Counted from the stretch's first letter, positions 1,446 through 50,833 are shown. The stretch: 64,000 nucleotides of DNA from Bacilli bacterium (GCA_017435255.1 JAFSFI010000008.1:1765-65764), one strand, 5' to 3'. Notes: generated from the sequence alone by a model not told the origin. Made by a program: numbers and translations.

Positions 1446-1899
1446 AAGTTCAAGAGAACGAGCAGGAATATCAATGAGAGAATTAGGAAGATTATCAGGA
1501 GTTAATAGTTCTGAAATATCTAAAATAGAAAGTGGGTTAAGACCTAGTCCTAATCTTAAAACATTAAAAAAATTATGTAGATATTTAGATATAAGATTAA
1601 ATGATTTAATCTTTGAAATGGGATTAGGTGCAACTTATAATCCTAAAAATAAAATCTTAATTGATTATTATAAGAATTTAGATATTAAGAATGTAAAATT
1701 ACCATATAAAGCACTTAAATATAAATATAATGATACATTAAAACAAATAAAAAAATTTAATGAAATGAAAGAAGATAAAAGGTATCATGATGAGTTAATA
1801 GATTTAATCAAAATACTAGAATACGAAAATGATACTACTAAATTTATTTTGAATATTTTAGAAGAAAAAATATTAAGCAATTTTTTAAACGAAAGTTAG
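1423..1899 (+). CDS. XRE-family helix-turn-helix transcriptional regulator
   Basis: N-terminal HTH_3 pattern IIKSSRERAGISMRELGRLSGVNSSEISKIESGLRPSPNLKTLKKL. Overlaps the end of the upstream gene by 23 nt. Confidence 0.7.
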   Translation: MNIGEIIKSSRERAGISMRELGRLSGVNSSEISKIESGLRPSPNLKTLKKLCRYLDIRLNDLIFEMGLGATYNPKNKILIDYYKNLDIKNVKLPYKALKYKYNDTLKQIKKFNEMKEDKRYHDELIDLIKILEYENDTTKFILNILEEKILSNFLNES

Positions 1900-1911
1900 G
1901 AGGTTGAAAAA

Positions 1912-4900
1912 ATGAAAGAAGAGTTTAAGAAAGATTTTATAAATAATAGAGATAATACTTTAACTGAAATAAAAGAAAATAATAACAACTGGAATAAGTT
2001 TATAGTTTATTGGTCAAACATTTTAGATAAATATAGTATTGATAATGTTTTGAATCTTTATTCTTATAATCCTTATGGAAGATTATTCATGACATTTGAT
2101 GAATGGAATAGTAATGAAATTGATAGAAGAATTAAACCAAAGAGTAAAGGGATACCTATACTTGAAGATAATAATAAAATATATGTTTTTGACGTAAGAC
2201 AAACATATGGAAAAGATTATAGAATATGGAAATATAATCACATGGCAGATATTGAAATATTAAGTTATTTCCAAGATAAGTATAAAGTATTACATGATAG
2301 TGATTTATCTTTGGATAATAATTTTTATAAAACATTTAAAGAAATAACAAAAGATAAAATAGAAGATAATTATATAGGATTATCTGATAAAGAAGTGGAG
2401 TTTGTATCTAATACAATAACTTCACTTTTTTTATCTAAATCTAATTTTAATATTTATAACTTACCTAGTAGTTATGAAAGTGTAAATAAGTTAGATGATG
2501 AAGATATTTTAAAATGTATGCAAATTGCTAATAAAGAAACAGCAATTATGTTTAATGAATTTCAAAAAAATGCGAAAAATATATCTAATCTTCATGCAAT
2601 TATTAGAGAAGATATTTTAAATCAATATAATGAAAATGTTTTTAAAAATGAAAATGAAATAAATGGGACTTTAAATGACTTATCTAATGCAAGTGGGTAT
2701 AATCATGAGTTATTAGAAGGTATTTATAATAATTTATTAAGTAAATATTCTTATATTAATAAGGATAAAAGAGAACAACCAAAAGAAGAAATCATTGAAG
2801 AAATAAGAGTTGAAGATGAGAAGAAAGCAGATGTATATGAAAATATACAAATGTCTTTATTTGCAACAAGAGAAGAAGAACTAGCAAATAAAATATGTGA
2901 TATATTTAATTCATTTGATACTAAATATCAAAATACTTTTGAAGTTAGAAATGTAGAATTACAAGTATGGGAACATATTGCTAGTAATAAAAGAAACCTA
3001 TCAATAATGTTAAAAAGTCCACTAGCAGATTATAATGAAAATGCTTTTACATATTTTAATGCTGATAAAACTGATGAAATAAAAATAAATGATAGTATAA
3101 AGAAAAATTATTTCTTACAACAATTATATAAAGATAAAGATTTCTCAATAACATTATCACCAGATATAGTTCATATATTTTGGAATAATTTTGATGATAA
3201 AAAATTTGATATGAATATCCCTAGCACAAAGGTAATAGATCAAGAAGAAATTGAACAAGAGGAATTAGAAAAAATAGATGAAGAAGTAGATTATATAGTA
3301 AGAACATCAGAACTAATACCTACTCAAAATGGAATTGAAACTAATGTTATTGAATCAAAATATTATAATAAAGATGGTATAGAATTAGAACAACCAAAAG
3401 AAGAACAATATCCTAAAATTAATTATCATATTAGTGATGATAAAGTTGATAATAATTTTGGTGCAAAAAGTAGATTTGATGATAATGTAAATGCAATTAA
3501 ATTATTAAAGAAATTAGAATTAGAAGATCGTAATGCAACAAGTGATGAGCAAGAGATACTTACTAAATATGTTGGTTGGGGAGGATTATCTGATGCTTTT
3601 GATGAAAGAAAAGATAATTGGAATAGAGAATATAATGAACTTAAAAATCTTTTAAGTGAGGAAGAATATAATCAAGCAAGACAATCAACATTAACATCTT
3701 TTTATACACCTAATGTTGCAATAGATGGTATTTATGATGCTATTAAAAAATTTGGATTTAATAAAGGAAATATATTAGAGCCATCTTGTGGTATTGGAAA
3801 TTTTTTTGGAAGAATACCAGAAGAACTAAATAACAATAGATTATATGGAGTAGAGTTAGATAGTATAAGTGGAAGAATTGCAAAGAAACTATATCCAACA
3901 GCTAAAATAGAAATAAAAGGATATGAAGAATCTAGTGTTCAAGATAATTTCTTTGATGTAGCAATAGGTAATGTTCCTTTTGGTAATTATAAAGTTTTAG
4001 ATAAGAGATATAAAGAAAACTTTATGATACATGATTATTTCTTTCAAAAGACATTAGATAAAGTTAGATCTGGTGGAATTATTGCTTTTATTACTACTGA
4101 TGGAACACTTGATAAGAAAGATACAAAGGTAAGAGAATATATTGCTAAACGAGCAGAATTAGTTGGAGCAATAAGACTACCAAACAATACATTTACAGGG
4201 AATGCAAATACAAAGGTAACATCTGATATTATTTTCTTAAAGAAAAGGGACGAATTAAAACATGATATAAGTGATGAAGATTGGATTTATACTAGTGAAT
4301 ATGATGATGGTATAACAATTAATAATTATTATATAAATCATCCAGAGATGATGCTTGGAAAAATGGAATTACATTCAACTGCTTATGGAATGGATAATAC
4401 TTTAAGTCCAATAGAAACACCATTAAAAGAATTAATGATTGATGCAATAAACAATTTACCACCTAACATATTTGAAAATATTGAGTTTGAATTAAATGAA
4501 CAAAATAATAAATATGAAATATTAGAAGTAGAAGATGGAATAAAGAATAATGCTTTTGTAATAAAGAATATAAATGATAAAGATATTATATATCAAAGAC
4601 AAGATTCTAATTTAGTTCCATATTCAATTCAAGATGGAATGACTGCAAAAAGAATTATTGGTTTATGTAAAGTAAAAAATGATTTAAGAAAAGTATTTGA
4701 TATACAACTTAAAGATGGTAGTGATGAAGAATTAGAACTTGCACAAAGTAAATTAAATAATTCTTATGATGAGTTTGTTAAAAAGCATGGATATATAAAT
4801 GATAATGTTAATCAAAGAGCATTTGACGAAGATCCAGATTATTACTTACTAACTTCTATTGAAAATAAAATTAGTAAAGATGAAGAAGATGATAAACCTG

Positions 4901-7900
4901 TATATGTTAAGGGAGATGTTTTTACTAAAAGAACAATAAGAAAAAGTAAAGAAGCAAAGAGTGTTGAAACAGCAGAAGATGCTTTGAGATATTCACTTAA
5001 TAATCGTGGATGTGTAGATTTAGATTATATGAAAACATTATATCCAAAAGATGAAGAAGAAATTATTGATGAACTTGGTAATTTAATTTATCAAGATCCA
5101 TCTAAATTAAATGATTTTAATAAAGGATATGTAATAGCAAGTGAGTATTTAAGTGGAAATGTAAAACAAAAACTTAATTATGTTAAATCAGTAAATATTG
5201 ATAATAAGTATGATAGAAATATTGAGGCACTAGAACAAGTGCAACCTATACCACTTGAATATGATGAGATAAGTGTTAAGTTAGGATCTACTTGGATACC
5301 AGAAGATGTATATCATCAATTTTGTTGTGAACTATTAGATATAAGTAGATGGAATGCAACAAGATTAAAAATTAAATATGCAAAAGAAATTAATTCGTGG
5401 TTATTTCAAGCAAGTGGTTTATATGGATATGGAGTAAAAAATACTAATGTATGGGGAACTGATAGAGCAGATGCTTTATCAATAATTAAGAATACTCTTA
5501 ATCTTCAAAGTATAACTGTCTATGACAAATTAGAAGATGAAAGACGAGTAGTAAATCCAGTAGAAACTGCTAATGCAAGAGAAAAACAAGAATTAATAAA
5601 ACAAGAGTTTAAAGAATGGATTTGGAAAGATGAAGAACGAAGAAATAGATTAGTTAAAATCTATAATGAAAACTTTAATTGTATGAGAGAAAGAGAATAT
5701 GATGGTAGTCATTTAACATTTGATGGAATGAATCCAACAATAGATTTAAGAGAACATCAAAAGAATGCTGTTGCAAGAGTTTTATATGGTGGTAATACTT
5801 TACTTGCTCATGCAGTAGGTGCTGGTAAAACTTACGAATGTATCGCAAGTGCAATGGAATTAAAAAGATTAGGTATAGTTAGTAAACCAATGTTTGTTGT
5901 TCCTAATCATTTATTAGGACAATGGGCTAATGAGGTTTTAAAACTATATCCAACAGCAAACATATTAGTTGCTACTCAAAAAGATTTTGAAAAAACAAGA
6001 AGAAAAAAACTAATGGCAAAAATAGCAACAGGAGAATGGGATGCAGTTTTAATTGCACATTCTAGTTTTGGATTAATCCCTATGAGTAAAGAATACGAAA
6101 AGAAACATATTGAAAAAGAAATACAAGAAGTAACAGAAGCAATAGATAGAATAAAAATGGAAGAAGGAGGAGGATTAAGTGTAAAGAAATTAGAGCAAAT
6201 TAAAATGAGTATGAATACAAAGCTAAAAAACTTATTAGATGATACTAAAAAAGATGATGTAGTAACATTTGAAGAATTAGGTGTAGATCAACTTATTGTA
6301 GATGAAGCACATATGTTTAAAAACTTACCAATGTTTTCTAAAATAAGAAATGTTGCTGGAATTAATAATAGTGAAAGTAAAAAAGCAACTGACCTTTATA
6401 TGAAGATAAGTTATATTTTAGAAAATAATGATGGTAAAGGAGCAGTATTTGCAACAGGAACTCCTATTAGCAATTCAATGGGAGAATTATTTGCAATGCA
6501 AAAATATCTTCAAATGGATAGATTAAGAGAAATGGGATTAGAACATTTTGATGAATGGGCATCAACTTTTGGAGAAATAGTTAATAGTTTTGAAATTGCA
6601 CCAGATGGTAGTGGTTTTAGAACAAAAGCACGATTTGCTCAATTCTTTAATATTCCTGAACTTATGACTTTATTTAAAGAAGTTGCTGATATTAAAACAT
6701 CAAAAATGTTAGACTTACCAGTTCCTAAATTAAAAGGTGGAGAATATAAAACAATAGTAGCACCCAAAACTGATGAATTAGGAGATTATGTTGAGAAATT
6801 AGCAGAACGAAGTGAAATAATAAGAAATGGATGTGATCCAAGAATTGATAATATGTTGCTTGTTACCAATGATGGAAGAAAAGCAGCACTTGATTTAAGA
6901 ATGATAGATCCAAATATGCCAGACTTACCTAATTCAAAAGTTAATATGGCTATTGAGAACATTTATAGAATATGGTTAGAAAATAAAGAAGACAAGCTTA
7001 CACAACTTGTCTTTTGTGATTTATCAACACCTAAAAATGATGGAACATTTAATGTTTATGATGATATTAAAAATAAATTAATTGAAAGAGGAATACCAGA
7101 AGATGAAATTGAATTTATTCATAATGCTAAAACAAATCCTCAAAAGTTAAAACTATTTGAAGATATGAGAACAGGTAATAAAAGAATACTTATAGGATCT
7201 ACTTCTAAAATGGGAGCAGGTATGAATGTTCAAGATAAATTAATTGCTTTACATCATTTAGATTGTCCATGGCGACCAAGTGATATAGAACAAAGAGAAG
7301 GTAGAATATTAAGACAAGGAAATCAAAATGAAGAGGTAGAAATATATAGATATGTAACTGAAGGCAGTTTTGATGCTTACTCTTATCAATTAATTCAAAC
7401 AAAATCTACATTTATAAATCAAATAATGGCTAATTCAAATGGTGGTGGAAGAACAGCAGAAGATTTAGATAGAGATACACTTACTTATGCAGAAGTAAAA
7501 GCATTAGCAAGTGGTAATCCTTTAATAATTGATAAATTCAAAATTGAAAATGAATTGAAACAATTATATTTATCTAAATCAAGATATGATAAATCACGAA
7601 TTGAATTAGAATCTAAATGTAATAGAGAATTACCTCAACAATTAAAATTTCAAGAAAGATATTTAAACGGATTGGAACAAGATATAAATAAAGTAGAAGA
7701 TTTGTCTGCTGATAATTTCAAAATAACAATAAGAGATCAATTCTTTGATTCAAGAAAAGATGCGAGTACAAAATTTTATCAAACTTTATCGTTGTTAAAG
7801 ACAGGAGAGGAAATCAAGATAGGAGAAATAAGTGGCTTTGATATTGTGGGAACACGAGAAGAATTGAGATTTACCCCTGTCGTATATATAAAAGGTATTG

Positions 7901-8196
7901 GTAAATATAAAGTAGAAATAAATAATATTGATGAAATAGGTAATATTCTTAAATTAGAGAATATGCTTAAAAGTTTTGAAACTAAAATTGAAACAGTTAA
8001 AGAGCAAATAGAATATACAAAGAAACAATTAAATGATGCAAAAGAAGAACTTGATAAACCATTTGCTTTTACTGAAAGAATAAGAGAATTACAAAAAGAA
8101 AAAGCAAGAATTGATAGTGAACTTGATTTAGATAAACAAGAAACGACTCAAGAATTATCTGACGAAAATAGTAATGATGATGAATTAGAAAGATAA
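1912..8196 (+). CDS. Giant fusion protein: N6-adenine DNA methyltransferase domain plus SNF2/DEAH helicase domain, typical of conjugative elements
   Basis: SAM motif [13 protein letters not shown] and catalytic motif IV GNVPFG around aa 630-690. Helicase Walker [15 protein letters not shown] box [11 protein letters not shown], and helicase-C motifs [13 protein letters not shown] and [19 protein letters not shown] upstream. Confidence 0.85.
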
Positions 8197-8401
8197 TTAA
8201 AAAAATGTAAAAAAAGTCTTGCAAAATTTCTTTTTTTAAGTGATTAATTATACGAAGAAAAAAGTCGTTTTAAAGTAGTTAATACAAGAATATCAAATTG
8301 TAAGACGCTCGGTTATATAACTATAAGTCATAAAAATTAAAACCTCTTAAAACGGCTTAAATTCGTTATATATAGTGATGTAATAAAAGGAGGAAGATAT
8401 T

Positions 8402-8908
8402 ATGTATATTACAGAAACTACAATTAATGTAAAAAATGTATTTGAAAAGGTAGAAGAATTGAATGATATAGGAAAAGTTAAATTTATTCTATATACATTC
8501 GGTTTGTTAAATAATAATCAAATAAATAATAAAAATGAAATTAATCCTACATTAAATAAAGATGAAGAAGAAATGACAATATTTAAAATGGATTTGTTAG
8601 GTTTATCTGAAAGTGCTTGTAATGTGTTTTTAGAATATAATGCAATGTTATATAATGGATTAACTGAAACAAAAGATATAATTATAGATAATGGAAATGT
8701 ATTAGGATTAGAATTTGATGATAATGAAATTAATATAGTAAAAGATTTTGAAAAATTAACTTATAATGAAAAGTTAGATTTATTTAAAGAATTGTTTATA
8801 AGATATGATAATAATACTTATTTTAAAAATAATATAAACATTATGACTTTTGACTCAAATAAAAATGGTTTTGATATAGCAAGAGAAATTGAACAATTTA
8901 AAATATAA
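8402..8908 (+). CDS. Hypothetical acidic, Asn-rich ICE protein
   Basis: 168-aa ORF with strong RBS AAAGGAGGAAG 6 nt upstream. No recognisable motif. Confidence 0.4.
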   Translation: MYITETTINVKNVFEKVEELNDIGKVKFILYTFGLLNNNQINNKNEINPTLNKDEEEMTIFKMDLLGLSESACNVFLEYNAMLYNGLTETKDIIIDNGNVLGLEFDDNEINIVKDFEKLTYNEKLDLFKELFIRYDNNTYFKNNINIMTFDSNKNGFDIAREIEQFKI

Positions 8909-9003
8909 AAATATATATAAGGACTAGTGATAGTCCTTTTTTTATGTAAAAAAATAATTATTTCAATTTACTAAACATATATTTAGAAAGGAAAGGTGAT
9001 TTT

Positions 9004-9129
9004 ATGTATAGAAAAGAAAAAATAAAAATAAATTTATTTTATGATGATTCTGGTGTAAATATATTAGATGTTTTAAAATTAGACTTCAAGGAATTTTTTG
9101 AACAATATTTAAAAGAAAAAGTTTTATAA
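9004..9129 (+). CDS. Possible small ORF (41 aa) upstream of the recombinase
   Basis: Not in the ORF track. ATG preceded by GAAAGGTGA. Peptide MYRKEKIKINLFYDDSGVNILDVLKLDFKEFFEQYLKEKVL. No homology recognised. Confidence 0.25.
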   Translation: MYRKEKIKINLFYDDSGVNILDVLKLDFKEFFEQYLKEKVL

Positions 9130-9242
9130 ATTTATCCAAAATAACTGAAAATATAATGTTTCTATGATATAATAACCATGTACCGTACTCGGTTGGTTAT
9201 ATTAGAAATGTTTGTATTGAATTCTAGAAATAGGAGGAAAAT

Positions 9243-10898
9243 ATGAATTATGATTGTGGAGTAGTTAAAGCATTACTAAACATATATAAACCAGAAGAAA
9301 TAGCTAAATATATAAGGTTATCTCTTGCTGATGAAGAAAGTGAAAAACAAAAACCAACTGATGAGAGTGAAAGTGTTACTAATCAAAGAAGATTAATAAA
9401 TAGTTTTATTGATCGCAATGGTAATATAGGTGCAAATTGTAAAGAGTTTATTGATGACGGATGTTCTGGAACAAATTTTGATAGACCTGGATGGAATAAA
9501 TTACAAGAACAAATGGAAGCAGGTAAAATCAAAGTTGTTATAACAAAAAGTTTATCAAGACTAGGTAGAAGTAATTTTGAGTGTAGTTATTTTCTTGATT
9601 ACTATTTTCCTGAAAACAATATTAGATATATTGCAATACAAGAACAAATAGATACAGGAAATGGAGAAAATACTAACAACGAATATGCGGCTTTAAACAA
9701 TTTTATAAATGAAAAATATTCTAGAGATTTATCAAAGAATATTAAAAGGGTTTATAGAATGAAACAACAATCAGGAGAATATATGGGAGGTATTCCTGTA
9801 TATGGATATAAGAAAGATCCTAATGATAAACATAAACTGATTATTGATGAAGAAGCTGCAGATGTTGTTAGAGAAATATTTGACAAGTATTTAGAACTAC
9901 AATCACAAAGTGCTGTTATGAAATATTTAACTGATAAGAAAGTCCCTATACCAGAGGTATATAAAGGAACTAGAAGAGGAATTAAAGCAAAACACCCATA
10001 CGAATGGAATTATCATACAATTAGAAGCATTCTTCGTAATCAAATGTATATTGGAGATATGGTACAAAATGTTCATGTCAAAAAAAGTTTTAGAGAAAAG
10101 AAGATTATTAAAAATGATAAGGAAAATTGGGTTATAGTTGAAGGCACACATGAACCTATTATTGATAAAGAAACATTTGATAGAGTTCAAAATCTATTAG
10201 ATGCTAATTTTAGACAACCAACACCAGAATATCAAAGAACATTTAAAGGATTAATGTTTTGTCATGAATGTGGACATTTAATAGGCGTAGGTAATCCTAA
10301 AAGAGATAATAGACCTATTGAAAAACAATATGTATATACTTATTGTAATTATTATAGAAAGAATAGTGCGTATAATAAGTGTACTCCACATACAATGAAC
10401 TACAATAATCTTGAAGATCAACTTTTATCTATTATTACAAATGTATGTAATAAATATATTAATTTAGTTGGATATGATGATTTGGTTGAAAATAGAAAAA
10501 AGACATTAACAACATATACAACTGATTTAGAGAAAAAAGTTGGTAGATTAGAGATAGACCTAAAAACCATTGATTTAAAAATTGAAAAGTTATACATGGA
10601 TAGATTAGATGACATTATAACACCAGATACATATAAGAAACTTACGGATAAATTTGAAGAACAAAAACATGAAATGCAAAAACAAATTGATGAGTTAAAT
10701 CAAAGTATAAATGAATATAAAGAAAATAATAAAGTAGAAGATTTACTTGAAACTCAAACCATAGTAAAAGAATATTTAAAAGCAAGAAAAAATCCACCAA
10801 GAGAATTAATTTTAAAAATAATTGATAAAATAGAAATACATCAAGATAAGACAGTGGATTTACATTTTAAACTAAAACAACTTGAAGAAGTTGTATAA
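9243..10898 (+). CDS. Large serine recombinase (resolvase/invertase N-domain, recombinase domain, zinc ribbon, coiled coil); the ICE integrase
   Basis: Catalytic serine context AKYIRLSLADEES. ITKSLSRLGRS, YGYKKD, Cys cluster CHECGH...CNYYRK...C and a C-terminal coiled coil. Sits at the extreme end of the element, as in Tn5397/Tn4451/skin-type elements. Confidence 0.9.
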   Translation: MNYDCGVVKALLNIYKPEEIAKYIRLSLADEESEKQKPTDESESVTNQRRLINSFIDRNGNIGANCKEFIDDGCSGTNFDRPGWNKLQEQMEAGKIKVVITKSLSRLGRSNFECSYFLDYYFPENNIRYIAIQEQIDTGNGENTNNEYAALNNFINEKYSRDLSKNIKRVYRMKQQSGEYMGGIPVYGYKKDPNDKHKLIIDEEAADVVREIFDKYLELQSQSAVMKYLTDKKVPIPEVYKGTRRGIKAKHPYEWNYHTIRSILRNQMYIGDMVQNVHVKKSFREKKIIKNDKENWVIVEGTHEPIIDKETFDRVQNLLDANFRQPTPEYQRTFKGLMFCHECGHLIGVGNPKRDNRPIEKQYVYTYCNYYRKNSAYNKCTPHTMNYNNLEDQLLSIITNVCNKYINLVGYDDLVENRKKTLTTYTTDLEKKVGRLEIDLKTIDLKIEKLYMDRLDDIITPDTYKKLTDKFEEQKHEMQKQIDELNQSINEYKENNKVEDLLETQTIVKEYLKARKNPPRELILKIIDKIEIHQDKTVDLHFKLKQLEEVV

Positions 10899-10927
10899 TT
10901 TTTACAAAAAAGTTATCACTGAAAACC

Positions 10928-11344
10928 ATGAGCCATAATTTTAAAGGATATAAAGCAGGAGATACAATTACTGTAGAAGGAAGCTATGATATTAATATTT
11001 GGTATTCATGCCAAGACGATACTAAAACTGAAGTTGTAAGACAAACTGATACATATAAAGAAACTGTGGTAGTCCCAAGAAAAAACAATTCTAATATATC
11101 TGGAGATGAAGAGATTATTGTTAGAAGTTTAAGACAACCAAGTTGCGTAAAAGCGGAAATTCAAAACGGAATGATAGTATATACTATTGAAAAAGAATTA
11201 GGAATTGAGATTGTAGGGGATACTAAAGTAAAAATTGCAATAGATGAAGACGAGGATGAATGGGATATTATAGATGATGATGTAATTGATAATGAAATAG
11301 ATAAAAAGATAGATGAAGAAGTTAATGAAGAGTTCTTAGATTAA
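10928..11344 (+). pseudogene. cotE: 3' portion of cotE (outer spore coat morphogenetic protein E), split by the ICE insertion
   Basis: [49 protein letters not shown] and an acidic tail ending EEFLD match B. subtilis CotE from about residue 55 to the C-terminus (from memory). About 45-50 N-terminal residues are missing. No SD precedes the ATG. The frame is open back to 10886. Confidence 0.7.
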
Positions 11345-18212: not shown

Positions 18213-18263
18213 TATTTGAAAATATATTAATTGATGTTATAATTTTTATAATAGGTGAAGTAA

Positions 18264-19094
18264 ATGAAAAAGATATATGTATTGTTTTTAGGATTAATAG
18301 TTTTAGGGTTTAACCCGGTTTTTGCAAATGAAAAAGTAGAAGTTAAATTTTCAAAATGTGTTGATGGTGATACAGCTAAATTTGTATTAGATAATAAAGA
18401 AATAACAGCAAGATTTTTAGCGGTAGATACACCAGAGACCGTGCATCCAACAAAAGAAGAAGAACCTTTTGGAAAAGAAGCTAGTAATTATACTTGTGAA
18501 AAATTAACAAATGCTAAAGAAATAATTTTAGAATATGATGATGGTAGTGATAAATTTGATAAATATGACAGACATTTAGTATGGGTTCATTATGACAATA
18601 ACTTTTTACAAGAGGAATTAATATCTTTAGGATATGCAAAAGTTGCATATCTTTATGGAGAATACAAATATACAGAAGATTTACAAAATAAGGAGATAGT
18701 AGCAAAAAGTGAAAAGGCTGGTATCTGGGGAGATTATGAATTTGTTGATATTGAAGAAGAATATATCGTAACTTTTTCTTATAATGGAAAAAGTAAAAAA
18801 GTAGAAGTAATTGGAGGCAATTCGGTTGTTCCTATTAGTAATCCTAAAAAGGAAAATTATAAGTTTTTAGGATGGTATTTGGATGAGGAAATTTATGATT
18901 TTTCACTCCCTGTAGAAAAGAATATTACGTTAGTTGCTAAATTTGAAAAAATAGATGATGAAATACCTATATATGTTTATATAATCAGTGGGATAATTGT
19001 TGTGATAGCAATAACTACCAATTATAAAGGAAGTAGAAATAAATTAAGAAGAAAAGTAAAATCTAGTGTTAAGAAAAAATTAATGAAAAATTAA
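18264..19094 (+). CDS. Secreted thermonuclease (SNase) with a Listeria-Bacteroides-type repeat and a C-terminal membrane anchor
   Basis: Signal peptide. CVDGDTAKF...ARFLAVDTPE and DRHLVWV match staphylococcal nuclease motifs. NYKFLGWYLDEEIYDFSLPV repeat. C-terminal TM plus a basic tail. Confidence 0.75.
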   Translation: MKKIYVLFLGLIVLGFNPVFANEKVEVKFSKCVDGDTAKFVLDNKEITARFLAVDTPETVHPTKEEEPFGKEASNYTCEKLTNAKEIILEYDDGSDKFDKYDRHLVWVHYDNNFLQEELISLGYAKVAYLYGEYKYTEDLQNKEIVAKSEKAGIWGDYEFVDIEEEYIVTFSYNGKSKKVEVIGGNSVVPISNPKKENYKFLGWYLDEEIYDFSLPVEKNITLVAKFEKIDDEIPIYVYIISGIIVVIAITTNYKGSRNKLRRKVKSSVKKKLMKN

Positions 19095-19159
19095 TTTTTT
19101 TTATTTTTTTAGGAAAACAATGTTTGAGAAGAGAATAATTAAAGTAAGGAGGTGATACG

Positions 19160-21241
19160 ATGTTAAAAAAATATGAGTGGGTTAGACAAGATGATATTAA
19201 AGATTGTGGTGTTTGTTCCTTGCTTATTATTATTAAAACTTATGGTGGTGGAGTTTCAAAAGAGTATTTAAGGGAATTAACAAAAACAACAAAAGAAGGT
19301 ACTACTGCATTTCATTTATTAGAAGCCGGTAGGAAATTAGGCTTTAACACGAACGCATTAAAAGGCGATATACTAGAATTAGATAAAAGATTATTACCTT
19401 GTATTGCGCATGTTGTTGTTGATAAAAAATATCAGCATTTTGTAGTAGTTATGAATATTAATAAAAAGAAAGGTATTATAACTATAAGTGATCCTGCTGA
19501 AGGGATTATTAAATATAAACTAGAAGAATATAATAAGATTTCAACAAATCAATACTTAGTTTTCATACCCAATAAAAAGATACCAAACTTAAAAAAGAAT
19601 AATGAAGTATTTAATAATATTTTTGAGACTATTATTCAGTATAAACATGTGTTTATTTCAATTTTTATTTTTTCATTATTATATACCCTTGTTAGTATAA
19701 TAACAGCTTTTAACTTTCAGATTATTATAGATCATGTGCTTACTTATTCTTCAAAAAACAATTTAAATTTAATCATTTTCATATTTATTTTTCTTTATAT
19801 TTTGAAATCTATTATAGATTTAACTAGAAATAATTTATTAGTATTTATAAATCATACTTTAGATAATAAACTAATCATGAATATTTATAGTCACATCATA
19901 TCACTTCCTTATTTGTTTTATAAAAACAGAACTACAGGAGAAATTATTTCTAGAATTAATGACTTAAGTGATGTTAAAGAGTCAATAAGTCGATTGTTTA
20001 TGACCTTTTTTGTTGATTTAGTATTAATTATATTTGTTTTCTTTACTTTATATAATATTAGCCCAAGTCTTACTTTGATAGGAATTATTATGATTATTAT
20101 GTATTTGATTGTTATAAAAATATTTAATAAATTTTTTAAATATTATATAAACAAGAATCAAGAAGATGCTGCGATAGTAAATTCGTATTTAATTGAGTCT
20201 ATTAATAATGTGGATACAATTAAATCCTTGGGATTAGAGAAGATATCTACTAATAAACTATATTGTAAATATAATAATTATCTTAACTCTAGCTATAAGT
20301 TTCAAAAACTTTTTAATTTAGAAAATTTTATTAAAGATATAGTTAATTATATTGGTACTGCTCTTATTATTTTTGTGGGAACAATATTTGTGTTAGAAGA
20401 AAAAATGAGCTTAGGAGAATTAATAACTTACAACGGTATGATTATATATTTTTTAGAACCGATAAAAAATATTATAGAAATGGAGTTAGTTATTAAAAAA
20501 AGTAAGATTTCAATTAACCGAGTAACAGAGTTATATGAAGTTGAAAAAGAAGAGATGGAGATTGATAAAAAATATAATGGAAATAAACTAAAAGGAAATA
20601 TTAAAATTAATAATTTGGACTATTCTTATAATGGTCGTAAGAATATATTTGAAGGCATTAATTTACAAATTGATTCTGGTAAAAAAATTATGATTTATGG
20701 AAATAGTGGCTCTGGGAAAAGTACCATAGGGAAGATATTAATGAAATTCCTTAATATAGAACGTGACAAAGTGTTTATAGATAATAAGGATATTAATGAT
20801 TATAATGTTATGGATATAAGAAGAGAAATTTGTTATATTGGTCAAAATGAAAACTTATTTAGTGATACTATTTATAACAATATTGTTTTAGATAGAGATG
20901 TTGATTATGACAAGTTTTTAAATATTGCTGATATTACTAAGGTAGATGAGATAGTAAAGAAGAATGTATTATCTTATGAAATGCTTTTAGAGGAAAATGG
21001 ATTTAATATTAGTGGTGGTGAAAAACAGAGAATTATTTTAGCAAGATCTTTACTTAAAGAAAGTAGTATATATGTTTTGGATGAAGCACTTAATCAAGTG
21101 GATGTAGAAAAGGAAAGAGAAATTCTAAAAAACGTTTTTAATTATTTAGATGGTAAAACAGTTATTTATATTTCTCATAGATTTGACAATAGCGATATGT
21201 TTGATAATAAGATAAATATGGAGAAAATTAAATATGCTTGA
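19160..21241 (+). CDS. Bacteriocin-processing ABC transporter with an N-terminal C39 peptidase domain
   Basis: C39 active-site context QDDIKDCGVCSL. Six TM segments. Walker A GNSGSGKST, signature ISGGEKQR, Walker B IYVLDEA. Confidence 0.9.
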   Translation: MLKKYEWVRQDDIKDCGVCSLLIIIKTYGGGVSKEYLRELTKTTKEGTTAFHLLEAGRKLGFNTNALKGDILELDKRLLPCIAHVVVDKKYQHFVVVMNINKKKGIITISDPAEGIIKYKLEEYNKISTNQYLVFIPNKKIPNLKKNNEVFNNIFETIIQYKHVFISIFIFSLLYTLVSIITAFNFQIIIDHVLTYSSKNNLNLIIFIFIFLYILKSIIDLTRNNLLVFINHTLDNKLIMNIYSHIISLPYLFYKNRTTGEIISRINDLSDVKESISRLFMTFFVDLVLIIFVFFTLYNISPSLTLIGIIMIIMYLIVIKIFNKFFKYYINKNQEDAAIVNSYLIESINNVDTIKSLGLEKISTNKLYCKYNNYLNSSYKFQKLFNLENFIKDIVNYIGTALIIFVGTIFVLEEKMSLGELITYNGMIIYFLEPIKNIIEMELVIKKSKISINRVTELYEVEKEEMEIDKKYNGNKLKGNIKINNLDYSYNGRKNIFEGINLQIDSGKKIMIYGNSGSGKSTIGKILMKFLNIERDKVFIDNKDINDYNVMDIRREICYIGQNENLFSDTIYNNIVLDRDVDYDKFLNIADITKVDEIVKKNVLSYEMLLEENGFNISGGEKQRIILARSLLKESSIYVLDEALNQVDVEKEREILKNVFNYLDGKTVIYISHRFDNSDMFDNKINMEKIKYA

Positions 21242-21665
21242 TATTAGAGATTATTTATTAGAATACAAAAGAAAAATTCCAAACCTTATACTCATATGGA
21301 CTGTGTTTTTAGTTTTTATAATAACATTTATTTTAATAATAAATAAATCCTTTAAGATAACAAACTATTATCTAGTTAAAGGAATTGTTAAGGACAATAA
21401 ATTAAACTTAGTAGTATCTTTAGATAGGAAGGATTCAATAATAAAAAACAATTATATTTATATAGACGAAAATAAGTATAAATATAAAGTCGAAAGTATT
21501 AGTGATATAGTACAGGAGAACAATAATTTTTATCAACAAATAATATTAGATATTGATGTTAAAGATGCCAACCTAATAGAAAATAATGTTATTGAATCAA
21601 AATTTATTGTTAGCAAAAAGACCATTTTAGAATATATTTATAATTTAATTAAGGGGGGATTTTGA
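21234..21665 (+). CDS. Short bacteriocin-export accessory-like membrane protein
   Basis: Start overlaps the ABC stop by 8 nt. One N-terminal TM. Sits where LcnD/HlyD-type accessory genes usually sit, but at 143 aa it is much shorter. Confidence 0.45.
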   Translation: MLDIRDYLLEYKRKIPNLILIWTVFLVFIITFILIINKSFKITNYYLVKGIVKDNKLNLVVSLDRKDSIIKNNYIYIDENKYKYKVESISDIVQENNNFYQQIILDIDVKDANLIENNVIESKFIVSKKTILEYIYNLIKGGF

Positions 21666-21805
21666 TGTTAGAGATTAATAGTAATGAGTTAAAAAATATT
21701 AAAGGAGGAGGTATTACTATTTGGGGTGGAATAGGAATAGCTTCAGGAATATTGTTTTTAATAGGTGTAATTGATGGCTTCGTGAGACCATTAAAATGTA
21801 ATTAG
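21665..21805 (+). CDS. Class II bacteriocin precursor A (46 aa) with a double-glycine leader
   Basis: Not in the ORF track. ATG overlaps the upstream TGA. MLEINSNELKNIKGG|GITIWGGIGIASGILFLIGVIDGFVRPLKCN. The leader fits ELxxIxGG and the core is Gly-rich and hydrophobic. Confidence 0.8.
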   Translation: MLEINSNELKNIKGGGITIWGGIGIASGILFLIGVIDGFVRPLKCN

Positions 21806-21817
21806 GAGGTAGATACC

Positions 21818-21988
21818 GTGAAAATAATAACAAAACAAAACGATTTATTAGAAATAAGTGGAGGAATTAATGTATCGGGAAGTGTCATTAATGCCTTTGC
21901 TAAAGGAATAGAAAGTATATTAAATGTCGGACGCAGTTTAGGAACAGCTATTAGAAGATTATATAGTGGAAATTTATGCAAAATTTAA
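21818..21988 (+). CDS. Class II bacteriocin precursor B (56 aa) with a double-glycine leader
   Basis: Not in the ORF track. GTG start 8 nt after AGGAGG. MKIITKQNDLLEISGG|INVSGSVINAFAKGIESILNVGRSLGTAIRRLYSGNLCKI. The leader fits DLxxIxGG and the core is cationic and amphipathic. Confidence 0.72.
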   Translation: MKIITKQNDLLEISGGINVSGSVINAFAKGIESILNVGRSLGTAIRRLYSGNLCKI

Positions 21989-22140
21989 TTAGACAACATA
22001 GAAACAAGATAAATATTTCGCTTCTTCTGTTATCTCCTGTTATTGTAGCTGTGTGTAATGTTTGTTTAGTTTCTATATTTAATTTAGGAAATTATACAGG
22101 TACATTTTTGAGATACTTGTTTCAACTGGTTGTTTCTTGA
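21976..22140 (+). CDS. Candidate bacteriocin immunity protein (54-aa small membrane ORF)
   Basis: Not in the ORF track. ATG overlaps the end of peptide B. MQNLIRQHRNKINISLLLLSPVIVAVCNVCLVSIFNLGNYTGTFLRYLFQLVVS. Followed directly by the operon terminator. No SD seen. Confidence 0.35.
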   Translation: MQNLIRQHRNKINISLLLLSPVIVAVCNVCLVSIFNLGNYTGTFLRYLFQLVVS

Positions 22141-22148
22141 TAATTAAG

Positions 22149-22178
22149 ACTGTTAGCTTGTAAGCTAACAGTTTTTTG
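22149..22178 (+). terminator. Rho-independent terminator of the bacteriocin operon
   Basis: ACTGTTAGCT-TGTA-AGCTAACAGT perfect 10-bp stem followed by T6. Confidence 0.85.
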
Positions 22179-22250: not shown

Positions 22251-23003
22251 ATGTATTGTATTGGCTGTAGTAAAAAATTAAATAATGGTGAGATTGTGTG
22301 TTCTAATTGTGGAACCAATCAAACTCAAGTTAATATTCCAAGAAAACCAATGATGCAAAGTTTAAAAAAGGCAATTATGAAAAATAAATTTCCAATATTT
22401 ATTGTATTGACAATCTTATTAATTGTTATATTTATATTTGTTATTAATTCAAATAAAGAAGTTAAAGAACCTGCTTCAGGACAACAAAAGTTTTCATATT
22501 ATTCTTTTGATGTAGATGGTGAAGGATTTTTAATCGGTGAAGAGGTTTCGTATTATGAGAAAAAGGGATATTCTTATAAAGACAATTATTATTCAAAAAA
22601 TGACTTTATTGTATCTGATGGATTTATGCCACATCTATTTTATAAAAACAATAATCCAGTTATGTATGCTGCTATGCATTGTCAAAAAGAAGATAAATGT
22701 AGTTATTCTGAAGCACGCATCATAAAGATTAATTTTTATGATGCAATTGGAAAAGTAACTTTTGCTGACTTTATAACAATAGGTACTACTGTGGAGGAAG
22801 TTGAAGAAAAACTTGGAAAAGCAGATGGTACCATTTATACAAATGACAATGAAAAAGTATGGTCATTTTATGATAAAGGTAAAGTAGGAACCCCTTATTA
22901 TGTACTTGAATTTGGTTCGGGTAAGGTTGTTAATATGAAAATAGGTGTTTGGTGGTATGAGGATGAGTATGAGCATACCATAAAAAAATGGGTATCATTT
23001 TAG
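22251..23003 (+). CDS. Zinc-ribbon membrane protein
   Basis: N-terminal CIGC...CSNCG zinc ribbon, one TM segment and an extracytoplasmic domain of unknown function. Confidence 0.5.
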   Translation: MYCIGCSKKLNNGEIVCSNCGTNQTQVNIPRKPMMQSLKKAIMKNKFPIFIVLTILLIVIFIFVINSNKEVKEPASGQQKFSYYSFDVDGEGFLIGEEVSYYEKKGYSYKDNYYSKNDFIVSDGFMPHLFYKNNNPVMYAAMHCQKEDKCSYSEARIIKINFYDAIGKVTFADFITIGTTVEEVEEKLGKADGTIYTNDNEKVWSFYDKGKVGTPYYVLEFGSGKVVNMKIGVWWYEDEYEHTIKKWVSF

Positions 23004-23016
23004 GTGGTGATTGATA

Positions 23017-25809
23017 ATGCAAAAGAATAATAAGAAAAGAAATTTGTTAATAGTTATTGTTATTATAATAATGTTATTATTATCGTTAGCAGGTGCATTA
23101 CTATTTGTACATGGATCTAAACAAAATAAAAATACGATAACAATAAATGAAAAACATTTATCAAAAATAGACGAGAATATATATAATCTAACAGAGAAGG
23201 TTGATTCTTTAAATGGCGATATTATTACAAAAGAAGAAATTGTTGATGTTTCTATTAATGTAAAAAGTGGTAACTTAAATATTTTAGATAAAAAATTGAA
23301 TCAATCTAAAAAATGGCAACTCGATGAAATAAGTTTTGTTCCTGGTACTAATGAAGTTTGCATTACTGCAAAGTTAGAAAAAAATAACTTGGAACAATGC
23401 TTTACGATCAATAACTATAATGAAGAAAACATAGGTGATATAGATGCTGGTGATTCAGATAATGATGGATTAAAAAATTATGAAGAAATAATTTTTGGTA
23501 CAGATATTACAAAAAAAGACACTGATGAAGATGGGCTAAGTGATTATGAAGAAATATATGTTATTTTAACTAGTCCGCTAGAACAGGATACCGACAAAGA
23601 TGGAATAGAGGATGCTTCTGAGGATTTTGATAAAGACCAACTAATTAATAGTGAAGAATTAAAAAAGAAGACATCTGTACATATGAGTGATACGGATGAA
23701 GATGGATTGAACGATTATGATGAATTAAACGAATTCAATACTAATCCAACACAAAAAGATACAGATGGAGATGGATTAAGGGATTATATAGAAATATATG
23801 AAACTAATACTGACCCAAACAAAAAAGATCAAAAAATAGATACAGCAAAAACTTCAGATGATGGAATAGCAAGCGTAGAGGTTAAAGATTTAAATGGTAA
23901 TGCGTATGAAACTTTATCTATTACCAAAGCTAATGTTTCACTTTTAAATTCAAATATTGCTGGTTATATTTTAGATGCTTATGAATTTAACGTTGAGCAA
24001 TCCAAAATAGATGCAGTAATCAGCTTTGATTTAAATTCTATTGATTTGGATGAAAATGCTAATCCTACTATTTATTATTACAATGAAGAAACACAAATGT
24101 TAGAAGAACTTGAAACAACAATTGAAGACGGAAAGGCATATGCCCATGTTAATCACTTCTCTAAATATATATTAATTGATAAAACAGAACATGATGCTAT
24201 GTGGGCTGAAGATCTTAGTTATTTGATTGGAGACAATTATAATAATTTAGATGTTGTTTTTGTTATTGATATATCAGCTAGTATGGATACGAATGATCCT
24301 ACTGATTCAAGAAAACAAATGATGAGTAACTTTATTTCTTCGTTAAAAGATGAGGATCGAGCAGGAGTGGTTTTATTTAGAAGAACATCACAAATTTTAA
24401 ATAATGGATTTTCTAATAGCGAAGGTGATAAGAAAAAATTGATTACAGATGTTTTTAATATATCTAACGACAATGGACGAGAGCTGGATTCTGGCACTAA
24501 TGGTTCACAGGGATTATATACAGCAATTAATATGTTTAAAGATAAAGAAGAAGCAAAAAGATATATAATATTTTTAACTGATGGATTGGATACCCATCAT
24601 GCTTATAAATATGAGGAAATATATAGATTGGCTAATGAAAAACACATAACAATATTAACTATAGGATTAGGATGGGAAGCAGATAGTAATTTGTTAAGTG
24701 AAATAGCAGAAAATACAGGTGGTAAATTTTATTATTCTGAAAATTCTGAAGATTTATATGAAAATTATGTTGGAATTTTAGAAGAAACAGAAGATTATAG
24801 AACCGATAGTAATAATGATGGTATTTCTGATTATTTTACTAAATTGATCTGTGACGGGACTATTACAACAGCAACTGGGCTTAATCCTTTCGAAGGGCTT
24901 TCTTATAATGAAATGCAGAAAAATGATGACCAAGATAAAGATGGATTGAAGAATGGTGAAGAAGTAAAGGTAGTCGTATTAGATAACAAAATATATTTGA
25001 AATATATTTCGGATCCTGTATTTATTGATAGTGATGGTGATGGTTTAGATGATACATATGATGCCAATCCGAATAAAAAATTTGATTCTAGATTTTCTGT
25101 GGTTGATGGACTGGACTTTAAACCTGAAACGCCTACAGAGGATAACCTGGCAAGGGAGTCAAATTCATCATATAACAAAGAATCTGGAAATTGTGTGGGA
25201 TGTAAGACAAGGGCCCAAGCAATGGTTGCAAGTTTTGGAACGATGCCGGCAGCATTAGCTTTACAACATTTTTTAGACAACGATGGAACTACATATAATT
25301 TTAATAATGATTGGGGATTACTTGAGACATATAGAGGAAAAGAGTATTTGGCTAAAAACACGAACGTTTTAATGCAGGTTGCAGAAGAAACTGTTAAAAA
25401 CGGTGACACACTTACTTTTGCAACCAATAAAGAATTAACAGGCACTAAATTTTCAGAACATTTGGACGATTTGGCAGATATTGGTTGGTGGTATGCTGTG
25501 GGACACACTAGAGCAACCATGGTAGGTCAAATTACACAAGAGAATGGAATGTATGAAATGACGTTGTATTATAATATTCACGATTTTTACGATTGGAATA
25601 AAGATGGGAGCTATTTTAATGGAGGTTTCGGCTTACTTGTTAGTGATGCGGAGATGTATAAACTTCACACTTTGGGAATTGCAAAACAATATCGCATAGA
25701 TATAAACTATAAAATGATTGTTAGATGGCAAAAAGGGGATCGTTATTATTTGGATAAAATAAAACTTTGGCAAACTCCTGCCACAATGAGTGTTGAAAGA
25801 ATAAATTGA
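23017..25809 (+). CDS. Membrane-anchored protein with thrombospondin type-3-like Ca-binding repeats, a vWA domain and an unknown C-terminal domain
   Basis: ATG at 23017, 7 nt after AGGTGGTGA. Eight DxDxDGxxDxxE repeats (e.g. DTDEDGLSDYEE). vWA MIDAS DVVFVIDISASMD, and IIFLTDGLD. Confidence 0.7.
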   Translation: MQKNNKKRNLLIVIVIIIMLLLSLAGALLFVHGSKQNKNTITINEKHLSKIDENIYNLTEKVDSLNGDIITKEEIVDVSINVKSGNLNILDKKLNQSKKWQLDEISFVPGTNEVCITAKLEKNNLEQCFTINNYNEENIGDIDAGDSDNDGLKNYEEIIFGTDITKKDTDEDGLSDYEEIYVILTSPLEQDTDKDGIEDASEDFDKDQLINSEELKKKTSVHMSDTDEDGLNDYDELNEFNTNPTQKDTDGDGLRDYIEIYETNTDPNKKDQKIDTAKTSDDGIASVEVKDLNGNAYETLSITKANVSLLNSNIAGYILDAYEFNVEQSKIDAVISFDLNSIDLDENANPTIYYYNEETQMLEELETTIEDGKAYAHVNHFSKYILIDKTEHDAMWAEDLSYLIGDNYNNLDVVFVIDISASMDTNDPTDSRKQMMSNFISSLKDEDRAGVVLFRRTSQILNNGFSNSEGDKKKLITDVFNISNDNGRELDSGTNGSQGLYTAINMFKDKEEAKRYIIFLTDGLDTHHAYKYEEIYRLANEKHITILTIGLGWEADSNLLSEIAENTGGKFYYSENSEDLYENYVGILEETEDYRTDSNNDGISDYFTKLICDGTITTATGLNPFEGLSYNEMQKNDDQDKDGLKNGEEVKVVVLDNKIYLKYISDPVFIDSDGDGLDDTYDANPNKKFDSRFSVVDGLDFKPETPTEDNLARESNSSYNKESGNCVGCKTRAQAMVASFGTMPAALALQHFLDNDGTTYNFNNDWGLLETYRGKEYLAKNTNVLMQVAEETVKNGDTLTFATNKELTGTKFSEHLDDLADIGWWYAVGHTRATMVGQITQENGMYEMTLYYNIHDFYDWNKDGSYFNGGFGLLVSDAEMYKLHTLGIAKQYRIDINYKMIVRWQKGDRYYLDKIKLWQTPATMSVERIN

Positions 25810-38518: not shown

Positions 38519-38604
38519 TGTAAAGTGATTAAAAAAAACAAATTTACTACTATTATTGATCGACATTGTTTGATAGAATATAAATTAAGATAGGAGTGTT
38601 TATA

Positions 38605-39378
38605 ATGGAATTTGTAAAGAAGAATATTAAGTGGATTGCTTTAGGAGGTTTGGGTGTTGCTTTTTTAGGTCTGTTTTTACCTTATGCAACAGTAACTGCA
38701 GAACTTTTTGGTACTCCAATTTTTAGCCAATCTATAACTTATGTAAAACATGATGGAATATTTGTTTTATTAGCTATTGTTGCTTGTGGAGTATTATTAT
38801 TCTTAAAGAAAGAATTGTTTTCTTTAATACCGTTAGGACTAGGAGCAGGTATTACTGTGTATAGTGCATTTAATGTAGGTAAAGTAATGGGTGAAACTCA
38901 AGTAGAAGGAGTTAAAACTAGTTTCTCAATAGGGTTTTATATGTTGATTATAGGACTAGTTGTAGCTGCCGCTGCAATTTGCTACAGTGAGTTTGTTCTA
39001 AAGAAAAAAGGAATAGGAATTGGAGTTAATAACCAGGGTTATGCACAACCAAATTATAATCAGGGATATCAACCTTATAACTATAATCAACCAACTCAAC
39101 CAATCGAACAACCTAGTTATAATCAACCATTTGTTGGTGGACCAGTAAACGATGTACAACAACCTATGGGAATGCCAGCAAACAATGATACGTACAATCA
39201 AACATCTGTTGCACAGAATCCAGTTCAATCGTTTGGTCAAGTGCAACCAGCAATGAACAATATGCAACAACCTGTTCAAGACTTTTCTAATCCAGCAGTT
39301 GTTAATTGTCCACAATGTGGAACAGCATTGAACGCGGGTACTCAATTCTGCCATCAATGCGGAAGTAAAGTAAATTAG
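38605..39378 (+). CDS. Multi-pass membrane protein with a Q/N/P/Y-rich linker and a C-terminal zinc ribbon (paralog 1)
   Basis: About four TM segments. Low-complexity NQGYAQPNYNQGYQPYNYNQPTQP. C-terminal CPQCGTALNAGTQFCHQCGSKVN. Confidence 0.6.
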   Translation: MEFVKKNIKWIALGGLGVAFLGLFLPYATVTAELFGTPIFSQSITYVKHDGIFVLLAIVACGVLLFLKKELFSLIPLGLGAGITVYSAFNVGKVMGETQVEGVKTSFSIGFYMLIIGLVVAAAAICYSEFVLKKKGIGIGVNNQGYAQPNYNQGYQPYNYNQPTQPIEQPSYNQPFVGGPVNDVQQPMGMPANNDTYNQTSVAQNPVQSFGQVQPAMNNMQQPVQDFSNPAVVNCPQCGTALNAGTQFCHQCGSKVN

Positions 39379-39445
39379 TTAAAGGGCCTTATGGCCTTTT
39401 ATTTATAAGGCAGATATAAAAGAATAAAATCGGGGTGAAATATAA

Positions 39446-42170: not shown

Positions 42171-42171
42171 T

Positions 42172-48995: not shown

Positions 48996-49099
48996 TAAAA
49001 TAAAAGAATGTCAAATTGACATTCTTTTTTTGTTTTTTAAACGAAATAAAATTTAAACTATTTACAAAGCGGGTAATAAATAGTAGTATAATAGTAGCA

Positions 49100-49123
49100 G
49101 TGGTTGATTGTGGTGAAAAGTGG
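49100..49123 (+). promoter_or_regulatory. Putative MraZ operator: three GTGG direct repeats at 10-nt spacing
   Basis: GTGG at 49100, 49110 and 49120 (aGTGGttgattGTGGtgaaaaGTGGggg), immediately upstream of the mraZ start. MraZ is known to bind phased GTG-containing direct repeats in mra promoters. Confidence 0.5.
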
Positions 49124-49132
49124 GGGATTTTT

Positions 49133-49576: not shown

Positions 49577-49578
49577 TT

Positions 49579-50502: not shown

Positions 50503-50511
50503 GGTGATATC

Positions 50512-50817: not shown

Positions 50818-50833
50818 TAGATGGTGATTAATA

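Follow-up and report, generated by a model that had tools for sequence, protein, structure and literature searches.

A conserved two-peptide bacteriocin-like operon with a peptide-derived candidate immunity gene in uncultured gut Bacilli

A compact five-gene operon lies within a 64,000-nucleotide stretch of DNA (the window) from a metagenome-assembled genome (MAG) labelled "Bacilli bacterium" (GCA_017435255.1, JAFSFI010000008.1:1765-65764). The locus, at 19160-22175, encodes an ATP-binding cassette (ABC) exporter with a C39 peptidase domain, a 143-aa protein, a 46-aa peptide (peptide A), a 56-aa peptide (peptide B) and an overlapping 54-aa open reading frame (ORF), and ends in a terminator. 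A first-pass annotation, made by a model from the sequence alone, had described it as an unannotated two-peptide class II bacteriocin operon. Its ORF coordinates and translations are reproduced exactly from the ORF list and the raw sequence and each of its architectural claims holds, but the word "unannotated" does not: GenBank already lists the 143-aa protein and the three small ORFs as hypothetical proteins (IJO43_02345, 02350, 02355 and 02360), the small ORFs having the accessions MBQ7136803, MBQ7136804 and MBQ7136805 with a functional name on none of them. An identical scaffold is held in an ENA metagenome assembly. The features of the locus are as follows.

19095..19159, + strand: 65-nt spacer separating the nuclease and exporter genes, with the Shine-Dalgarno sequence AAGGAGGTG at its 3' end
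19160..21241, + strand: ABC exporter of the peptidase-containing ABC transporter (PCAT) type, 693 aa, with C39 protease, six-helix membrane and ATPase domains
21234..21665, + strand: 143-aa ORF, the "mini accessory", a predicted single-pass membrane protein with an N-terminal transmembrane (TM) helix and an all-beta ectodomain of ~100 aa
21665..21805, + strand: peptide A precursor, 46 aa, with its leader at 21665-21709 MLEINSNELKNIKGG
21710-21802, + strand: peptide A core, 31 aa, hydrophobic GITIWGGIGIASGILFLIGVIDGFVRPLKCN
21818..21988, + strand: peptide B precursor, 56 aa, GTG start, with its leader at 21818-21865 MKIITKQNDLLEISGG
21866-21985, + strand: peptide B core, 40 aa, cationic and amphipathic
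21976..22140, + strand: 54-aa membrane ORF (IJO43_02360), candidate immunity protein and paralogue of the C-terminal half of peptide B
22146..22175, + strand: intrinsic terminator at the 3' end of the operon, a 13-pair stem with a T run

The genes are closely packed. The start of the 143-aa ORF overlaps the exporter stop by 8 nt, the ATG of peptide A overlaps the TGA of the 143-aa gene, the two peptide genes are 12 nt apart and the 54-aa ORF overlaps the end of peptide B, as had been noted at first pass, by 13 nt. The GTG start assigned to peptide B is indeed preceded, at a distance of 8 nt, by an AGGAGG that is kept in 12 loci, and orthologues have an ATG at the same position. The terminator contains the perfect 10-bp stem claimed for it within a total of 13 pairs (-18.5 kcal/mol, z = -5.3, with 0 of 200 shuffled sequences folding as well); a hairpin stands at the end of the operon in each related locus, its sequence differing from locus to locus.

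Related loci were gathered by two routes, L001-L013 from relatives of the 143-aa protein and L014-L029 from GTDB species genomes scanned with the peptide A alignment. Hidden Markov model (HMM) searches, suggested along with the original description, located the complete set of four small products, in the same order, in 18 distinct loci in Bacilli and Mollicutes MAGs, the two peptide genes being adjacent within one operon in all 18. HMM E-values for the small ORFs reach 1e-33. Short ORFs are plentiful in AT-rich DNA and the small genes could on that account be chance open frames, an explanation that is refuted by the comparative data and to which we give practically no credence: frame, length and motifs are preserved across the 18 loci even where the exporter is only 38-44% identical, as are the Shine-Dalgarno sequences before the exporter, the 143-aa gene, peptide A and peptide B. 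Non-synonymous divergence (pN) lies well below synonymous divergence (pS) in every part (pN/pS 0.18-0.54), consistent with purifying selection. The individual ratios (exporter 0.50, 143-aa gene 0.53, peptide A 0.30 with its core lowest at 0.18, peptide B 0.45 and 54-aa ORF 0.52) are rough, because pS is ~0.5 and saturated.

The module is also inherited as a unit, since each part diverges between loci in step with the exporter (correlation of pairwise distances, r 0.79-0.96), the 143-aa protein giving the highest value. Mirror-tree partial correlations with the exporter signal removed are weak (at most 0.31) and do not identify interacting pairs. One variant of the operon is indexed in 184 blocks of the contig collection. 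Two distant loci carry an additional gene between peptides A and B, a class I S-adenosylmethionine-dependent methyltransferase (Methyltransf_11, E 5e-18) at 6165-6827 in L015 and an unrelated 157-aa ORF at 6166-6639 in L021; being different from one another and absent elsewhere, these are not counted as parts of the system. The module-bearing GTDB representative MAGs of L016, L019, L021, L023 and L028 are titled "uncultured Muribaculaceae bacterium" and the label Ignavibacteriales is attached to one relative of peptide A; contaminating contigs or wrongly labelled bins are the probable cause.

Class IIb bacteriocins are generally recognised by adjacent structural genes, double-glycine leaders of 15-30 residues, an ABC transporter, GxxxG motifs and an immunity gene (PMC2850506). 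The leaders of both precursors fall within this range, 15 aa in peptide A (with ELKNIKGG) and 16 aa in peptide B (with DLLEISGG), and both fit the consensus [ED]LxxIxGG to which they had been assigned. The double glycine is kept in 119 of 120 sequences of each peptide family, and a regular-expression scan of every ORF in the window returned no short double-glycine precursor other than these two. The family of peptide A comprises at least 250 clusters (44-47 aa) and that of peptide B at least 158 (52-57 aa), all from metagenomes or from MAGs labelled Bacilli, Mollicutes or Bacillota. Some peptide A relatives in other MAGs have been given a class IIb bacteriocin name by PGAP and JGI. A literature search for the core motifs of the two peptides found no paper.

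The two cores are of contrasting character, and the first-pass description of one as hydrophobic and glycine-rich and the other as cationic and amphipathic, with GxxxG spacing, is borne out. The peptide A core is strongly hydrophobic (grand average of hydropathy, GRAVY, 1.26; net charge +1), whereas that of peptide B has a net charge of +4 and a hydrophobic moment (muH) of 0.71; the computed monoisotopic masses of the reduced cores are 3198.80 Da and 4203.33 Da, respectively, and a disulfide-linked A-B heterodimer would have a mass of 7400.12 Da. Counting from the first core residue, GxxxG motifs occur at G9xxxG13 and G19xxxG23 in peptide A and at G22xxxG26 in peptide B. Among 121 sequences of each family the invariant residues are F31, G34, D37, G38, P42 and C45 in peptide A and G15, G16, G38, G42, R46 and C54 in peptide B (precursor numbering), so that a GxxxG motif in each peptide (G34/G38 and G38/G42) is made of invariant glycines. 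AlphaFold2 (AF2) modelling of peptide B with 121 sequences predicts a short leader helix and a single long helix spanning residues 21-50 (predicted local distance difference test score, pLDDT, 73).

Operons with several unrelated double-glycine peptides exist, the blp and pln loci being examples, and A and B might likewise be two independent one-peptide bacteriocins served by a common exporter. We consider this very unlikely: the two are always adjacent, each in single copy and in the same order in the 18 loci, they co-diverge, both have an invariant GxxxG motif and an invariant C-terminal cysteine, and the operon offers a single candidate immunity gene. A pair acting together is the reading that we prefer.

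That candidate is the 54-aa ORF, which the first-pass annotation had proposed for the role. It is present after peptide B in all 18 distinct loci (48-56 aa). Its N-terminus is basic, it contains a single hydrophobic helix, its conserved tail reads IF-x2-G-x3-G-[TS]-x2-R, and there is no double-glycine site. Alignment of the 54-aa family to the peptide B family with hhalign gives a probability of 93% (E 3.3e-7, score 34.8) over the C-terminal 30-32 residues. One hundred column-shuffled ORF alignments scored 7.8 +/- 1.3 (maximum 11.3) and a reversed alignment 11.1, and comparison of the 54-aa family with peptide A gave a probability of 0.3%. An HMM of the 54-aa ORF picks out peptide B from 1374 window ORFs (E 1.5e-6), and the invariant residues of the ORF, G38-x3-G42-x3-R46, occupy the same positions as three of the peptide B invariants. 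The 54-aa ORF is thus, on these profile comparisons, a paralogue of the C-terminal half of peptide B, and we infer that it goes back to a duplicated peptide B gene that lost export. This peptide-B-derived candidate immunity ORF is, as far as sequence comparison takes us, newly recognised here. The 54-aa ORF of L005 (5742-5906) has KIVGG at residues 12-16, which is where the double-glycine site lies in peptide B; this may be a vestige of an exportable form or a return to one.

In every locus, the 54-aa ORF takes its start codon from the C-terminal cysteine codon of peptide B and the base before it (xxA TGY supplying the ATG). Together with the paralogy, this arrangement suggests immunity by means of a membrane-anchored decoy. 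A precedent for such a decoy is provided by gallocin A of Streptococcus gallolyticus, a two-peptide bacteriocin (GllA1/GllA2) with functionally important cysteines, the third operon gene of which encodes a small immunity peptide, GIP, proposed from structural models to mimic and compete with the bacteriocin peptides (PMC10100652). In GIP the mimicry comes from structural models, whereas the likeness of the 54-aa ORF to peptide B is detectable at the level of sequence profiles.

The cysteines themselves are a further feature of the peptides. As reported at first pass, each core in the window has a single cysteine near its C-terminus, followed by one residue in peptide A and by two in peptide B. 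Exactly one cysteine, 1-2 residues from the end, is present in 115 of 119 peptide A cores; the C-terminal cysteine occurs in every peptide B core, usually two residues from the end, with exactly one cysteine in 78 of 119 and a second further upstream in 40 of 119. An intermolecular disulfide between A and B is possible, without specific support, and the idea is weakened by the upstream cysteines; in addition, as the cysteine codon supplies the start of the 54-aa ORF, part of the invariance of the peptide B cysteine may come from the gene overlap. Gallocin peptides, unlike those described here, have two cysteines each and form helical hairpins with intramolecular disulfides; an arrangement of that kind is not supported for A and B, which mostly have one cysteine per core, peptide B being modelled as a single helix.

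The C39-peptidase exporter recognised in the first-pass annotation matches PF03412 (Peptidase_C39, 1e-31), PF00664 (ABC_membrane, 3e-42) and PF00005 (ABC_tran, 6e-25), and would be the dedicated transporter expected of a class IIb operon (PMC2850506). It is homologous over its full length to PCAT1 of Clostridium thermocellum (4ry2, E 4e-118, its best solved relative) and to ComA (8hf4, E 9e-104), with the same three-domain layout, and Cys17, His93 and Asp111 align with the protease residues of PCAT1. Against TIGR01193 (peptide cleavage/export ABC transporters), however, it scores 484.5 bits over its full length, short of the curated cut-off of 523.85, and against NF045998, the mycoplasma PCAT family that includes Mbov_0121, it scores 313.7 bits (cut-off 500). 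Its architecture and catalytic residues are nonetheless those of a PCAT. Exporters of the window type differ from PCAT1 and ComA further in always being followed by a gene for the 143-aa partner.

The 143-aa protein had been noted at first pass as an unusually short accessory protein measured against the ~450-aa LcnD type. The length stands, the yardstick does not. There is no Pfam match, and neither HlyD nor any other Pfam or NCBIfam model matches at E <= 0.01 apart from a weak hit to the MAG1140 family; a resemblance to the LcnD/ComB-type accessory proteins (HlyD family, ~450 aa) was accordingly not found. An exhaustive profile search yielded 335 representative clusters, and the 150 best of these 335 are all shorter than 200 aa, mostly 130-155 aa, none resembling a 450-aa LcnD or ComB. 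The possibility that the protein is a truncated LcnD is rejected for this reason, and it belongs to a separate family of ~140-aa proteins. AF2 predicts (pLDDT 77) a membrane helix at residues 4-39 followed by an all-beta domain and a short C-terminal helix. A Foldseek search of the PDB with this model returned nothing at E <= 1e-3, the matches of the ectodomain to the beta-barrel domains of MacA, AcrA and Spr0693 (E 0.2-0.5) being merely suggestive, and the sequence profile of the family compared with PDB sequences found no membrane-fusion protein and nothing else relevant.

A distant parallel may exist in the mycoplasmas. The 143-aa protein scores 17.4 bits on NF045999 (the MAG1140 family, 126 aa), aligning to profile positions 3-126 of 126 with a cut-off of 35, and a weak match is seen in 18 of 69 diverse members of the 143-aa family (best E 2.4e-4, all below the cut-off). 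NF045998 and NF045999, paired here by their consecutive accession numbers, likewise consist of a PCAT and a small protein of similar length; the proteins of the window, by contrast, all lie under the curated cut-offs of both. The literature on these two families contains no published function, Mbov_0121 appearing only in gene lists.

The most likely role of the 143-aa protein is that of a minimal export partner, a proposal that draws on its tight translational coupling to the exporter and on the correlation of its distances with those of the exporter (r 0.96). It might instead be an immunity protein, or a second one, leaving some other role to the 54-aa ORF. The protein evolves quickly (47-88% identity, compared with 74-90% for the exporter), has no detectable HlyD or LcnD homology, and accessory proteins may contribute to immunity according to the class IIb review (PMC2850506). 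This assignment is nevertheless improbable in our view, given that translational coupling to the exporter is seen at every locus, that no other part tracks the exporter so tightly, that the 335-cluster family weakly resembles NF045999, whose accession (by number only) comes right after that of the PCAT family NF045998, and that the weak Foldseek matches are to beta-barrel domains of membrane-fusion proteins.

Directly upstream of the operon, at 18264-19159, is a gene for a secreted nuclease of the SNase family that has a Listeria-Bacteroides repeat and, at its C-terminus, a membrane anchor. The 65-nt spacer that separates the two is well conserved (mean column identity 82% in an alignment of 7 loci) and a terminator scan of 19095..19159 found no hairpin, so that the operon may be read through from a nuclease promoter around 18216-18243, where there is an 11/12 promoter match upstream of the nuclease gene. 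The nuclease gene may accordingly be co-transcribed with the bacteriocin operon. The position of the promoter is itself only a possible assignment: promoter-like sites are no more frequent than in shuffled sequence (40 compared with 45.5), and none can therefore be assigned with confidence.

In the window and in L009, two extra genes at 22251-25809, for a 250-aa zinc-ribbon membrane protein and a 932-aa protein that combines von Willebrand factor A (VWA) with bacterial thrombospondin type 3 (TSP3) repeats, lie between the terminator and ftsA. They are absent from this position in the other near-clade loci that show ftsA (L002, L005, L010, L022, L024, L027 and L030-L032) and are a lineage-specific insertion.

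Bacteriocin loci are usually fast-changing and patchy in distribution. Several observations on the present operon sit uneasily with such a picture and weigh against reading it as a bacteriocin system. In the near clade, the operon is always found at one site, between the gene for the secreted SNase-family nuclease and ftsA-ftsZ, and the core of peptide A is the slowest-evolving part of the module (mean p-distance 0.27, compared with 0.46 for the exporter). Pfam scans of 45 other window ORFs, including nearly all those of at least 120 aa, found no kinase or regulator within ~20 kb, in agreement with the first-pass statement that no quorum-sensing genes are adjacent; the nearest regulator is a hybrid histidine kinase-response regulator at 47196-48995, 25 kb downstream. 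No clear Shine-Dalgarno sequence was found before the 54-aa ORF. Neither peptide B nor the 54-aa ORF matches a named family, the family of peptide B having no model of its own, and peptide A scores 21.0 bits (E 2e-4, residues 3-36) on TIGR03949, the lactobin A/cerein 7B family of class IIb bacteriocins, 0.5 bit under the cut-off of 21.5. As this model is matched at E <= 0.01 by 101 of 121 peptide A relatives (best 1.8e-7), the peptide A family evidently straddles its edge. The matched stretch, which stops at residue 36, comprises the leader and the opening, glycine-rich portion of the core; most of the conserved C-terminal portion of the core (F31, G34, D37, G38, P42 and C45) lies beyond it.

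Some of these observations would be expected if A and B were not toxins at all and instead served the producer, for example as a pheromone pair or as membrane-associated factors in division or sporulation, with the 54-aa ORF as a partner. Besides the fixed site beside ftsA-ftsZ, peptide A changes at the pace of a housekeeping gene (76-96% identity, compared with 74-91% for FtsA), and the operon was found neither on plasmids (no tblastn match in 72,556) nor in the viral contigs searched. Signalling peptides too are exported by PCATs (PMC7018657). A function of this sort is, however, unlikely. Neither a sensor kinase nor a regulator lies next to the operon, the core of peptide A is TM-like (GRAVY 1.26) and in this differs from a diffusible pheromone, and the presence of the same module amid unrelated flanks in distant loci shows that it behaves as a portable cassette. 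A toxin-like paralogue kept in the membrane, moreover, fits the logic of toxin and immunity.

Taking these arguments together, we consider it probable that the operon specifies a self-contained two-peptide (class IIb-like) bacteriocin system. The module is conserved and co-inherited and some relatives of peptide A already bear the class IIb name, in keeping with the first-pass interpretation; activity, synergy between the peptides and immunity are predictions from the gene sequences.

According to this proposal, the adjacent peptide genes, each preceded by a strong Shine-Dalgarno sequence, would yield precursors A and B in approximately equal quantity. With its C39 domain the exporter would cleave each precursor after the double glycine, and it would then expel the cores, probably aided by the co-translated 143-aa protein. 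Outside the cell, the hydrophobic core of A and the cationic helix of B would insert into the membrane of related bacteria and pair through their invariant GxxxG faces (G34-x3-G38 with D37 in A, G38-x3-G42 with R46 in B), the pair permeabilising the membrane, possibly by way of a conserved membrane-protein receptor. The 54-aa ORF product would stay in the membrane of the producer. With a G-x3-G-x3-R face in common with peptide B, it could act as a decoy there, binding peptide A (or the receptor) and so blocking self-killing.

The resemblance to characterised class IIb systems such as lactococcin G, plantaricin EF/JK and enterocin 1071 (PMC2850506) extends to the adjacent precursors, with leaders of 15-16 aa here, to GxxxG motifs in both cores, to the combination of one hydrophobic and one cationic helical peptide (31 and 40 residues here) and to the presence in one operon of a dedicated C39-ABC exporter together with a small membrane protein as the immunity candidate. 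This likeness is known here from the genes alone, and the cores of the window have no sequence similarity to characterised ones. There are other differences. Each core has an invariant terminal cysteine, cysteine being absent from most of the class IIb peptides that have been characterised (PMC10100652); the 143-aa accessory protein is not HlyD- or LcnD-like; no regulator is adjacent; and the structural genes are downstream of the transporter in what is probably one tightly coupled transcript. The system would thus be of an ordinary kind, and what appears unusual is its tiny accessory protein, its peptide-derived self-protection gene and the fixed tail cysteine of each peptide. The slow change of the peptide A core and, within one clade, the fixed chromosomal position of the operon also set it apart. 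A more ambitious proposal, which we regard as speculative and on balance doubtful, is that the operon represents a distinct branch of two-peptide bacteriocins, widespread among uncultured gut Bacilli, combining decoy immunity derived by duplication of the beta-peptide gene with just the partner-binding G-x3-G-x3-R face retained, a hitherto undescribed ~140-aa minimal export partner (a TM helix and a small beta domain) that replaces the HlyD-type accessory and is distantly shared with mycoplasma PCAT loci, and an A-B heterodimer linked by a disulfide between the C-terminal cysteines.

Elsewhere in the window, 63-11344 contains the end of a conjugative or integrative element, with genes for a TraG/VirD4 coupling protein (63-1445), a helix-turn-helix protein, a 2094-aa SNF2-type helicase protein and a large serine recombinase (9243-10898). 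The element is followed immediately, at 10928-11344, by a cotE gene without its first ~39 codons (matching CotE positions 40-174 of 177). It looks as though a mobile element has inserted in a spore-coat gene, possibly to be excised during sporulation. Two adjacent paralogous genes of ~260 aa at 38596-40231 each have a zinc-ribbon domain at the end, with an ABC ATPase gene and two ABC-2 permease genes 3' of them (40390-42948). At 49016-52981 are mraZ, mraW and a PBP2B/FtsI gene with PASTA domains, which together with cotE show the organism to be a walled and probably spore-forming Firmicute, although some relatives are labelled "Mollicutes".

If active, the system would represent a characteristic bacteriocin of a widespread group of uncultured gut Bacilli, sampled from ruminants, rabbits, chickens and humans, and would offer a simple example, visible at the level of sequence, of decoy immunity derived from a toxin. 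It would also give a handle on the small partner proteins of peptidase-containing ABC exporters, those of the mycoplasmas included. Finally, it would serve as a test case of a peptide core that has stayed nearly unchanged whilst its exporter has diverged to 40% identity, a disparity that points to a very conserved target.

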